Positions 58,161-60,837 of a stretch of 64,000 nucleotides of DNA are shown here, piece by piece. A program made the translations under genes and the position numbers. Numbering within the stretch: position 1 is the first letter of the stretch; each line of letters starts with the position of its first letter. The notes beneath the pieces are model-generated. The model had not been told where the DNA came from. It did no database searches and saw only the letters and a program-made list of their open reading frames with translations. The stretch is from a virus (lineage: Duplodnaviria > Heunggongvirae > Uroviricota > Caudoviricetes): positions 13,017 through 77,016 of IMG/VR virus record IMGVR_UViG_3300033066_001079; one strand, given 5' to 3'.

Positions 58161-60349
58161 AGTTTGAAGTATTGATTCGCCATTTGGTTTCCGAACGCCT
58201 CTGCTCCTGACTCTGGCGACTCGAACTTCCCAGTTGGGAAGGTATCTAGATAGTCTCTGTTATGTTGACTCTCATGAGCAGTTGTGTTTCCGATTTCATG
58301 CTCAAGTATTTTTGTTATCTTCTCTACAATATCATTCGACAGATCCGGATCTAGCTCCACCCCGTCCATCTCCGTTGTCGAAGGAAAAGCTTGTTGCTGA
58401 GCTTCATTGAAAACTCTTGCAATGTCAACATGAACCGTTCCCGGCTGCGTGCTGATAGCTACTCCTAAAGCGTCCTGCTGAGCTATGCCGCCAGTATCAA
58501 TGGTATGAACGCCATTATCATTCAAGACCTTTTGAAGCTTGGCAACAACTCTATTCATAATGTCCTGACCGCTAATCGTTTGATTCGTGCCGGGAACGGT
58601 AAAGTTGGCGGAAAGCCCAGTTCCTTTGACCGTTACTCCATGCGGAGTTCGGAACATTCGGTATTGGTTAACCTGTTGCGGAGTAAGGGTTTGCGCTCTT
58701 TTGTACCAACTCATATTTGCTGCCTCCACCTGCTGATGCGGCATGAGTCCGAACATCTTTCTGTACTGATCTCCCATATTCTGTATACCATAACTAAGAA
58801 TGTCCTTTTCCATTTCTGGCCATCTAGAACGCAAAACATGCATTGCATAAGTGGCCGCTCCCCAACCGTCATGCCTCTTCATTATTCGCTCTTCTAGCTC
58901 TGGCCACCTTCCTTTTACGAAGGTAGCAGCGTATCTACTCGCCGTTATAGTATCTTGTAACAGAATGGGTTCTGCTTCTGGCCATCTGTCTTTTAGAACA
59001 GTTTCGCAATATACGATGATATCCCAACCAGCGCTTCCACCCTTGTTATTAAGAATGAGTTTTTCAAGCTCAGGCCACTTGCGGATTCCTCGTTTGAGAC
59101 AGAAATCGCAGCATGGGTCTATGTCCTTTGTTATTTCTGCGCTCTTGAGCATGTACTTTAGATGAACGTCGTCAACCTTGTCGTGCTGCGTATTCCATAG
59201 ATACGCAGACATTTCTTCGGCCCTTTGGGGGTTCTTGAGCATCTCTTGGTCGTACTCTGGCCACGGTTCAAGATTTACCATGTCGCCCGTTCGTCTTGCC
59301 TTTTTCAGTTGATAATGATGTAGGAAATATTCTCTTGCGAATGTTGTTTTGACTATATAAGGCTCTCGCTCTTCCATTCTCTTATTGGGAGATGCTATAT
59401 TGACGTAATCCTCAATAAGGTCGCCGTCTATAACGTGTTGAGGATTGTTTTCGAGCTTTTCTTTTTCCGCGCCCACGGGCAAAAAAATTATTTGGTCCTC
59501 TACCAGCGCTAATCTTCGCTTCCACGCCTCTACATTCTCCATTATCCTCTTGGCCACGCTCTTTCTTTCGCCCGATTGCTTGAACCAGTTAACAAGGTCT
59601 TGGTCTACTCCCGGATAGTCTGCCTCAGACGCAAAATTTTCCCAGAAGCTATCCTCGCTAATCTGTCCATTCTTTGTTAGTTGACGCAATACTTCCGCAA
59701 AACCCTGCGCAGGCTTCTTAATGGGTCTGTCCATTACGTCCATGATCTGTTCTAGGTTTTGAGTCGCCTGCGCATACTTCTGCCAGCCGCCGTTCTGCGC
59801 CGTCATAAACAAGAATAATGGACCGCTCCTAAGATACTCTTGAGCAGTTGAATAGCCAGCCGTCTGCCCAGTCTCGTCGTCAATGTAATCGTCAGCAGCC
59901 GTACACCACTTGGTCCCCTTGCCTAGCTCGCAGACCGCCTCCGGCGTTGTCATCTTCAAGACCCTCCATCCGTTTGCATTGAAGACTTCTTGAGAGCCCT
60001 GTACCTTTATGTCCTGAGTCACCTGCCTCTTGCTTCTAAGATCAACCCCTTGAAGCTGGTCTATCGCAGCCTCTACGTCATTGAACGTTCTGTACTGATA
60101 AATGTCCTTAATCTGAAGCTTCCGCAAATTCGCGGAAAAGAAAGACAAAGCTTTATTCAGCCTTGGTCCGTCCTCTGGAAGACGCACAGAGCCGCTTCTT
60201 GCCCACATAAGGATTGGACGAGCGTATTGCTTGTTGGGAGAGGGGTCCGCCGCAAGAGCTTGATTCGCTAGCTCGGGATTGTCGGGGAACTCCTTGAGAA
60301 GTCCCTGTAAGCGAGTCTGAGCGTCCGCTATACGAATGAACCATGTCAT
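58157..60349 (-). CDS. large protein with MTWF leader, paralog of the previous gene, with 4x RWPE-type repeats and an internal SD+ATG start
   Basis: 730 aa. It has DGPRLNKALSFF...LGKGTKWCT and repeats of the form KWPELEKLI, RWPEAEPIL, RWPELEERI and RWPEMEKDI. An in-frame ATG at 58714 (Met546, MSWYKRAQ) is preceded by GGTGGAGG 8 nt upstream. Confidence 0.65.
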   Translation of the reverse strand: MTWFIRIADAQTRLQGLLKEFPDNPELANQALAADPSPNKQYARPILMWARSGSVRLPEDGPRLNKALSFFSANLRKLQIKDIYQYRTFNDVEAAIDQLQGVDLRSKRQVTQDIKVQGSQEVFNANGWRVLKMTTPEAVCELGKGTKWCTAADDYIDDETGQTAGYSTAQEYLRSGPLFLFMTAQNGGWQKYAQATQNLEQIMDVMDRPIKKPAQGFAEVLRQLTKNGQISEDSFWENFASEADYPGVDQDLVNWFKQSGERKSVAKRIMENVEAWKRRLALVEDQIIFLPVGAEKEKLENNPQHVIDGDLIEDYVNIASPNKRMEEREPYIVKTTFAREYFLHHYQLKKARRTGDMVNLEPWPEYDQEMLKNPQRAEEMSAYLWNTQHDKVDDVHLKYMLKSAEITKDIDPCCDFCLKRGIRKWPELEKLILNNKGGSAGWDIIVYCETVLKDRWPEAEPILLQDTITASRYAATFVKGRWPELEERIMKRHDGWGAATYAMHVLRSRWPEMEKDILSYGIQNMGDQYRKMFGLMPHQQVEAANMSWYKRAQTLTPQQVNQYRMFRTPHGVTVKGTGLSANFTVPGTNQTISGQDIMNRVVAKLQKVLNDNGVHTIDTGGIAQQDALGVAISTQPGTVHVDIARVFNEAQQQAFPSTTEMDGVELDPDLSNDIVEKITKILEHEIGNTTAHESQHNRDYLDTFPTGKFESPESGAEAFGNQMANQYFKL

Positions 60350-60837
60350 CGTATGTACCTCTTTATGTCTGGGTCGTTACGCATGTAGGCTGGTATATAC
60401 GCCTGAGGGTTTCGTGCCAGAGTTTTCAGAAGCTCTTGCTTCTGCTGCTCGTAGCCTGAAACCTGCTCTGGCTTTGGTATAAGCTTTTCATGCAACTGTC
60501 CCTCGAATGTCGGTTGATTGGGCTTTGGCTTGAACGACTCGGCCTTGGTCATGAACGAGAGGGGTAGGTCCATGCGCAAAAGAACAAGCAAGTTGTCTTT
60601 ATCTGTTCCGCCGGAATCTATATAGCTGAGCGGAGCCTTGAAAGTAAGAACAACGATGTCCTCCTCTCCAAACTGCTCTGCCGCATAGGAACGAGCTAAC
60701 TGCTTCTTTGTTGTAAGGTTTGCCACGCCGCTTGCTCGTAGGAATCCAGCCTTCTGTATCTCCTTGAAGATAGAGGCGGACGTTCCGTGGTAAACGACAA
60801 TCGACTTAGACTGTTGAGCTTGTTTATACCATGCCAT
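60346..60837 (-). CDS. small protein with MAWYKQAQ leader and a diphtheria-toxin-like YHGT motif (ADP-ribosyltransferase-fold candidate)
   Basis: 163 aa. VVYHGTSASIFKEIQKAGFL resembles the beta-1 motif of H-Y-E class ARTs and Tpt1 (DT: SSYHGTKPGYVDSIQKGI). A later FEGQ could be the catalytic Glu region. The assignment rests on these motifs only. Confidence 0.45.
   Translation of the reverse strand: MAWYKQAQQSKSIVVYHGTSASIFKEIQKAGFLRASGVANLTTKKQLARSYAAEQFGEEDIVVLTFKAPLSYIDSGGTDKDNLLVLLRMDLPLSFMTKAESFKPKPNQPTFEGQLHEKLIPKPEQVSGYEQQKQELLKTLARNPQAYIPAYMRNDPDIKRYIR

Follow-up and report, generated by a model that had tools for sequence, protein, structure and literature searches.

We have analysed a gene encoding a small protein with a predicted ADP-ribosyltransferase (ART) domain, hereafter the target, which lies in a 64,000 nucleotide stretch of a Caudoviricetes genome (IMG/VR record IMGVR_UViG_3300033066_001079, positions 13,017 to 77,016). 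This whole stretch, referred to as the window, looks like part of a huge-phage genome. The target is encoded on the minus strand, with a single open codon upstream of its ATG, and its translation, which starts MAWYKQAQQSKSIVVYHGTSASIFKEIQKAGFL, contains exactly the strings quoted in a first-pass annotation made from the DNA sequence. The protein is composed of three parts, namely a short N-terminal tag (MAWYKQAQ), a domain of about 95 residues beginning at VVYHGT, and a conserved C-terminal tail. The features of the gene are the following, confidence being given as the predicted local distance difference test (pLDDT):

60346..60837, minus strand: whole open reading frame (ORF), 163 amino acids plus stop, ATG at 60837 and stop codon at 60346-60348
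60814..60837, minus strand: tag MAWYKQAQ, residues 1-8, unstructured in the model
60526..60804, minus strand: predicted minimal ART-fold domain, residues 12-104
60781..60792, minus strand: YHGT, Tyr16-His17-Gly18-Thr19, putative strand-1 NAD-binding motif, kept in all full-length homologues
60709..60720, minus strand: NLTT, Asn40-Thr43, strand 2, with Asn40 invariant
60496..60507, minus strand: FEGQ, residues 111-114, unconserved, in the linker after the domain (block-mean pLDDT about 60)
60349..60453, minus strand: C-terminal helical tail, residues 129-163, ending ...LARNPQAYIPAYMRNDPDIKRYIR, strongly conserved

Protein family and predicted fold

A word-indexed search of 5.8 billion proteins returned one copy of the target with 98% identity, and an exhaustive phmmer search of 1.84 billion representatives returned six true homologues and two repeat-protein artefacts; by profile searches the family was grown to about 12 clusters. 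A third homologue search, run with the ART domain alone and at E values up to 10, identified no bridging family; its only returns were P0015 and P0016, two phage ARTs of the H-Y type with marginal scores. All full-length members are of 159-165 amino acids, and the ORF of P0004, which was annotated short, reaches MWYTLASEGTVTLYHGT. Homologues are hosted solely by large viral contigs, namely four from IMG/VR (494, 371, 334, and 85 kb), one of 480 kb from JGI, and one of 86 kb from a metagenomic assembly. No relative of the target was present in a GTDB scan with one genome per species, and no match was found by blastn or tblastn among 50,697 cultured-phage records. Sequence searches of the PDB (phmmer and profile) produced matches to SMC proteins which are due to the low-complexity tail, and otherwise nothing relevant.

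Conservation was read from a 12-sequence alignment of the family. Invariant or near-invariant positions are W3 and Y4 in the tag, Y16, H17, G18, T19, S30, G31, N40, L41, T42, K45, A48, V62, L64, F66, P69, D90, and P92 in the domain, and L140, N143, P144, A146, Y147, P149, M152, R153, and D155 in the tail, the latter carrying the signature RNPxAYIPxYMRNDP and accounting for seven of the twelve invariant columns. As Asn40 is invariant, the site is more likely to have been maintained than to have decayed. YHGT is present in every full-length homologue; the histidine singled out by the first-pass annotation is also there, as His17 when the initial methionine is counted and not as residue 16. It should be noted that YHGT alone is within chance, as chance predicts about one [YF]HGT for the window translated in six frames, and one was found; the motif goes beyond chance because of its conservation in homologues, the ART fold of the domain, and the enriched leader described below. 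The catalytic glutamate which had been proposed within FEGQ does not hold up, since the corresponding residues in homologues read FQEG, MPKE, PTDV, DLAE, and KPSD and the position falls into the lower-confidence linker past the ART domain.

The structure model was produced by AlphaFold2 with the 12-sequence family alignment (pLDDT 80, predicted template modelling score 0.60), the single-sequence AlphaFold prediction being unusable (pLDDT 49). Most of residues 11-100 have values of 83-95, with the block 71-80 at 67 and the linker 111-130 at about 60, while the tag is below 50 and stands outside the folded domain. The elements of the domain follow each other in the order strand 1 (VVYHGT), helix, strand 2 (ANLTT), helix, strand 3 (IVVLTFKAP), and C-terminal strands. 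Comparison of the model with the PDB by Foldseek, as an independent method, ranked CC0527 on top (E 1.8e-4), followed by TreX and then by many Tpt1/KptA structures; poly(ADP-ribose) polymerase (PARP), diphtheria toxin, and ExoA are placed below Tpt1 and CC0527. In the viral structure library BFVD the matches included DarT, Arr, and a Tpt1 fusion, as well as several phage G proteins and polyvalent proteins with MuF or ParB fusions. Both the split beta-sheet of the ART fold and the strand-1 motif [HR]-G-[ST] are found in the target, and the claim of an ART fold is thereby supported at the level of the model, in agreement with the ART/Tpt1 reading of the first-pass annotation.

Relationship to the known ART clades

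ARTs have been divided into the clades H-H-h, H-Y-[EDQ], and R-S-E (PMC9503650). Enzymes of the H-H-h clade act on phosphates or small molecules without a Glu, and their roles include RNA repair, small-molecule modification, and the generation of soluble ADP-ribose products (PMC9503650), while ART-PolyVal domains have an H-Y-D active site (PMC5512222). The best Pfam match of the target was ART-PolyVal (E 0.0087, residues 12-72, confined to the N-terminal half), a model which is matched by three of seven family members; PARP was also matched (E 0.18), and the sole NCBIfam match was RNA 2'-phosphotransferase (E 0.078). All of these matches are sub-threshold, and they agree with the predicted fold.

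When the domain without its tag was compared by hhalign to a Tpt1 alignment made of E. coli KptA and three PDB Tpt1 sequences, residues 14-67 were matched with a probability of 87% (E 3.9e-6), while column-shuffled controls (n = 20) gave at most 1%. The two are collinear over VVYHGT and FLYHGT, IQKAGF and IKKQGL, ANLTT and VHLSA, a helix with a conserved Ala, and IVVLTF and PVILTV, the target being named first in each pair. Asn40 stands opposite the second His of the Tpt1 H-H-h triad (VHLS) in this alignment, and opposite the Tyr of FYFTT or FYVTT in the tagged ART-PolyVal paralogues and in P0015 and P0016. The catalytic Arg125 of KptA, located four residues before the VHLS strand, falls opposite a gap in the target, and the basic residues R34 and K35 lie 2-3 positions upstream. 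Alignment to the ART-PolyVal paralogues yielded 94% with the tag and 24% without it, which means that the higher score derives mostly from the common tag. Mapping of the ART-PolyVal strand-5 Asp onto the target was unsuccessful by local, global, and low maximum-accuracy (MAC) hhalign, and the residues expected at strand 5 are hydrophobic or small (NLLVLL, SVVSTV). Candidate acids are D74, which is D or E in most members and shifted in two, the near-invariant D90, and E100.

The target is therefore closest to the Tpt1-like H-H-h group, yet it is not a member of it. Assignment to the H-Y-E class of diphtheria toxin and ExoA, as made in the first-pass annotation, is contradicted by the invariant Asn40 at the position of the strand-2 Tyr and by the lack of an assignable conserved Glu, Asp, or Gln on strand 5.

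One of the related contigs, L007, encodes three HGT-type ART-like domains (1622-5782, 10001-10486, and 18111-18746); these are a domain near the N-terminus of a 1386-amino-acid protein, with the motifs SLFHGT...EVFFTT...PIILHLEIP, the orthologue of the target, and a tagged 211-amino-acid ART-PolyVal-like protein.

The N-terminal tag and the neighbouring genes

The tag of the target belongs to a general form M-[N/S/A]-W-Y-K-x-A-Q which, once start codons had been inspected, was found on about 10 ORFs of the window:

33379 and 36332, plus strand: starts of tagged ORFs
53494, 58160, 60837 (the target), 62445, 62821, and 63339, minus strand: starts of tagged ORFs
60917, plus strand: start of a tagged ORF, the divergent partner described below
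60349, minus strand: tag variant MTWF
33370-34197, plus strand (interval containing 33379): tagged phage lysozyme (MNNKGWYKAAQ) with an N-terminal extension of about 100 residues (Pfam E 2.3e-8)

The shared leader reported by the first-pass annotation is thus genuine: WY within residues 2-8 occurs in six of the 63 automatically called ORFs of the window against 0.27 expected (Poisson P = 4e-7), and a strict DNA pattern for MxWYKxAQ has 98 matches in 82 IMG/VR stretches, 75 of which are at ORF starts. These matches often come as several per contig, and many of the contigs are of 440-548 kb. Residue 2 is Asn in about three quarters of a related set (n = 69 tagged ORFs), the consensus being MNWYK[KIQ]AQ. 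In bacterial and archaeal genomes (GTDB, 596 Gb) the pattern MNWYKKAQ has two matches, which by a rough estimate is about the chance expectation, and in a far smaller viral set it has about 13.

Conservation of the tag is at the level of amino acids. The codons for Tyr, Lys, Ala, and Gln differ synonymously, the upstream DNA differs, and the spacing from Met to Trp varies from 0 to 4 residues; a nucleotide-level element such as a translation enhancer or a mobile gene-start cassette was rejected for these reasons. Between a fifth and a half of the genes near the target are tagged in relatives (from four of 22 to five of 10), including genes for a UvrD helicase, GNAT proteins, a PcfJ-like protein, and an ART-PolyVal protein. 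Tagged proteins elsewhere in IMG/VR include a bona fide ART-PolyVal protein on L028 (E 1.2e-17), a GNAT protein, a cREC_REC domain protein, an AAA_33 kinase, a nucleotidyltransferase of the poly(A)-polymerase type, a full glucose-6-phosphate dehydrogenase, small membrane proteins, and a MuF-like protein (L059) with a weak MuF match. In the L028 protein, as in the 211-amino-acid protein of L007, the tag immediately precedes strand 1. Brevibacillus phage Jenst has the closest cultured relative of the tagged ART-PolyVal protein, which is without a tag and indicates that the tag is a modular addition. The motif strings were not found in their sequence context in the searchable literature, with few string matches in unrelated papers, and the tag apparently has not been described previously.

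Tandem arrays of tagged genes were observed on other phage contigs (L014, 11652-12971; L021, 147-3307; L028, 6985-8270) and contain genes for the complete glucose-6-phosphate dehydrogenase, cREC_REC, the AAA_33 kinase, ART-PolyVal, and GNAT.

The immediate neighbourhood of the target is organized as follows:

58157..60349, minus strand: second operon gene, 730 amino acids, overlapping the end of the target and starting with the tag variant MTWF
55998..58160, minus strand: third operon gene, tagged DUF4116 protein of 720 amino acids
60838..60916: intergenic control region of 79 bp between the target and its divergent partner
60917..62002, plus strand: tagged partner gene, divergent from the target, 361 amino acids (MAWYNEAIF...)

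The stop codon of the target and the start codon of the 730-amino-acid ORF share an ATGA overlap, and the same overlap is found between this ORF and the 720-amino-acid DUF4116 ORF, so that the target is the first gene of a three-gene operon. The 730-amino-acid protein has WPE-type repeats (RWPE[LAM]E motifs), an internal MSWYKRAQ at residue 546 (58714, minus strand), and near its C-terminus an HExxH motif (HESQH) which marks a putative metallopeptidase. Its L004 orthologue keeps the internal tag (MTWYKRCQ, residue 547). By appearance, two tagged modules have been fused in this gene, or else it has an internal start.

Target and partner are syntenic in all relatives read, and the partner has no matches in Pfam, PHROG, NCBIfam, or PDB. 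The control region between them contains two CGAYANTATA boxes (60842-60851, minus strand; 60903-60912, plus strand), which are located 4-9 nt upstream of the two ATGs, and between the boxes the inverted repeat CTCCTTCGACTTCAAGGAG (60870-60888). This layout, which is kept in the relatives L004, L007, L010, and L011, suggests a dedicated and co-regulated promoter pair, possibly near-leaderless. Since there are just two copies of CGAYANTATA window-wide, both at the target/partner pair, a general phage promoter was ruled out; a scan around the target gene for consensus sigma-70 promoters and terminators found none.

The window also encodes a ribonucleotide reductase, a dUTPase, ThyX, a sigma-70 factor, two AAA ATPases, glycosyltransferases, and a Band-7 protein. 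Features located outside the vicinity of the target are:

6770-7363, minus strand: 2H-SAK phosphoesterase
9891-12920, minus strand: 1009-amino-acid ORF containing an intein with a LAGLIDADG endonuclease
22503-25025, minus strand: class II-like ribonucleotide reductase with a TSCPD domain
26552-27733, minus strand: DHH/DHHA1 phosphoesterase
27730-28401 and 28380-29174, minus strand: two adjacent overlapping ORFs, each matching just the C-terminal end of the MptE-like model
29680..30204, minus strand: macrodomain ORF (Pfam Macro, E 3.3e-24)
34154-34726, minus strand: RNase T-like exonuclease

The macrodomain to which the first-pass annotation had drawn attention is real, and with the 2H-SAK, DHH, and RNase T-like genes it makes up a set for processing nucleotides and ADP-ribose, which could serve in RNA repair or anti-signalling. 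The MptE-like pair may be duplicated genes or a split gene. Closer to the target, the segment 47444-63992 carries in this order a SNF2 helicase, a tagged 935-amino-acid protein, an AAA ATPase (53694-55409), the tagged DUF4116 protein, the 730-amino-acid HExxH protein, the target, the tagged partner, three tagged small proteins, one of which is a helix-turn-helix protein, and a Dam methylase. Polyvalent early-invasion proteins fuse SNF2, adenine methylase, zincin peptidase, and ART domains (Iyer et al., PMC5512222), and ARTs are the commonest modifying domain of such virion-delivered proteins (PMC5512222). In its gene content the segment corresponds to polyvalent proteins whose domain repertoire is distributed over individual genes, the majority of which are tagged.

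Function of the target and comparison with known systems

The explanation that we prefer, giving it about even chances, is that the target serves an uncultivated huge phage as a stand-alone protein, either accessory or effector, and is composed of the tag, a minimal ART-fold domain, and a conserved tail. The nearest relatives of the ART domain are the NAD+-binding lobe of Tpt1/KptA and the minimal ART CC0527, with ART-PolyVal at a greater distance. What we infer regarding NAD+ binding, catalysis, substrate, timing of action, and packaging is as follows. The HGT motif of strand 1 and the NLTT motif of strand 2 would bind NAD+, and the ADP-ribose would be moved to a nucleophile which does not need the classical strand-5 glutamate; the acceptor could be a phosphate at the end of a nucleic acid or on a nucleotide, as for enzymes of the H-H-h clade, or else some host macromolecule. 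Substrate-binding or catalytic residues would come from the conserved tail instead of the RNA lobe that Tpt1 has and the target lacks, and the tag may be a common address or handling signal for a battery of proteins. The polyvalent-type domain setting suggests that the target works against the host at an early stage of infection.

Several points weigh against this explanation. All family-model scores are far under their curated cut-offs (ART-PolyVal 17.3 against 31.2 bits; NCBIfam 12.5 against 231), and the structure model was built on a shallow alignment of 12 sequences. No conserved Glu or Asp can be assigned to strand 5, and with Asn instead of the strand-2 Tyr or His the aromatic residue which stacks on nicotinamide is lost, so that NAD+ binding could be weak or absent. 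All four catalytic residues of Tpt1 (R-H-R-R) are missing, as the N-lobe is absent and the fourth Arg corresponds to a gap; upstream of strand 1 there are just the 8-residue tag and three residues, with no RNA lobe.

A catalytically dead ART-fold protein which binds only a ligand or a partner is an alternative that we consider somewhat unlikely. Such a protein could bind NAD+ or ADP-ribose derivatives as a sponge or sensor for immune signals based on ADP-ribose, could mislead or inhibit the ARTs of the host as a decoy or inhibitor, or could be an adaptor acting through its tail. In favour of this, neither the canonical Tyr nor the Glu is present and a gap stands opposite the catalytic Arg of Tpt1, the most conserved segment is the non-ART tail, as would be the case for a binding motif, and the tight synteny with the divergent partner and their common conserved control region would also fit. 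However, His17-Gly-Thr and Asn40-Leu-Thr are invariant among members which are only 30-45% identical, a pattern typical of a maintained active or ligand site, which is compatible with ligand binding too and does not separate binding from catalysis, and enzymes of the H-H-h clade function without a Glu (PMC9503650). The model of the first-pass annotation was a classical H-Y-E toxin of the diphtheria toxin, ExoA, or PARP type, which is packaged in the capsid via the leader and injected to modify proteins of the host, with the macrodomain as eraser. This we regard as improbable: the Tyr is replaced by an invariant Asn, FEGQ is unconserved, and PARP, diphtheria toxin, and ExoA rank under Tpt1 and CC0527. 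In its favour are the ART fold and HGT motif, the frequency of ARTs among the modifying domains of virion-delivered polyvalent proteins (PMC5512222), and the resemblance of the tag to the capsid targeting sequence of T4 as a common short N-terminal peptide (PMC3012670), while the tagged lysozyme (33370-34197) and the weak tagged MuF-like protein L059 would fit virion delivery; but glucose-6-phosphate dehydrogenase, a P-loop kinase, a UvrD helicase, and small membrane proteins are tagged as well and are unlikely capsid cargo, and neither a protease site nor linkage to structural genes was found. The macrodomain is encoded in the window, but about 30 kb distant from the target.

True RNA repair of the Tpt1/KptA type, i.e., 2'-phosphate removal or 5'-phosphate capping together with the 2H phosphoesterase (6770-7363) and the macrodomain (29680-30204), is in our view similarly improbable. 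The Tpt1 NAD lobe is the best structural and profile match, and 2H-SAK and Macro domains are companions of KptA in phage RNA-repair systems (PMC9503650); against this, the absent N-terminal RNA lobe would carry three of the four essential residues (R-H-R), the fourth Arg faces the gap, the middle His is an Asn, and the NCBIfam model NF002013 scored 12.5 against a cut-off of 231 (the Pfam family of Tpt1 being PF01885). No RNA ligase was found in the window, and the 2H and Macro genes are 30-53 kb away.

A bolder extension of the preferred explanation, which we put forward as a doubtful proposal, is that M-N-W-Y-K-x-A-Q is a new virus-specific addressing signal which marks an unfused effector arsenal, within which the target has a new His-Asn ART site completed by the tail. 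Such a signal could get proteins packaged and ejected, pass them to a phage AAA+ machine, or direct them to a compartment, and the arsenal may be the stand-alone counterpart of polyvalent proteins. A role in capsid targeting is suggested by analogy and calls for caution, given the metabolic and membrane cargo.

Another divergent ART in a huge phage would be unsurprising by itself, as ARTs are front-line weapons between phage and host. The target lacks every residue known to be catalytic in its nearest relatives save the strand-1 His, and it keeps an invariant Asn and a highly conserved tail peptide; if active, it would represent a novel type of active site, perhaps with a novel ADP-ribosyl acceptor. 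The part most worth further work is the tag, which many uncultivated large phages have on dozens of proteins with unrelated functions and which is nearly absent from cellular genomes. If it is an addressing signal, the effectors of huge phages could be catalogued by a simple rule read from sequence, and the tag would be a handle for loading foreign proteins, like the T4 capsid targeting sequence.

Among known systems the nearest profile match is the NAD+-binding C-terminal lobe of Tpt1/KptA (H-H-h clade), with which the strand elements of the target are collinear. Tpt1 differs by its N-terminal winged-helix RNA lobe, which carries the Arg-His and Arg of the catalytic tetrad and is absent from the target, while in the target the second His is changed to Asn and a C-terminal tail and an N-terminal tag are added. 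The top PDB match, CC0527 of Caulobacter (PDB 2jqn/2o0q), is a stand-alone minimal ART-fold protein of about 115 amino acids and of unknown function; it is bacterial, has neither tag nor conserved C-terminal tail, and shows no detectable sequence relationship to the target, with 16-17% identity in the structural alignment. ART-PolyVal (PF18760; the H-Y-D ARTs of polyvalent proteins from phages and conjugative elements, Tox-ART-HYD2 clade) shares with the target the HGT of strand 1 and the x[FL]TT of strand 2 followed by (I/L)Axx(Y/F)A, and on related phage contigs bona fide members carry the tag immediately ahead of strand 1. The target has neither the helical insert of this family nor its GYDG motif of strand 5, and the C-terminal halves do not align. 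Finally, the capsid targeting sequence of T4 is a short N-terminal peptide common to otherwise diverse packaged defence proteins (PMC3012670). Alt and the other T4 internal proteins carrying it resemble the present case in that a short N-terminal peptide is found on phage proteins which are otherwise unrelated and include ARTs as one class. The two peptides have no sequence similarity, T4 Alt is an R-S-E ART, and the tag described here is carried by metabolic and membrane proteins as well.

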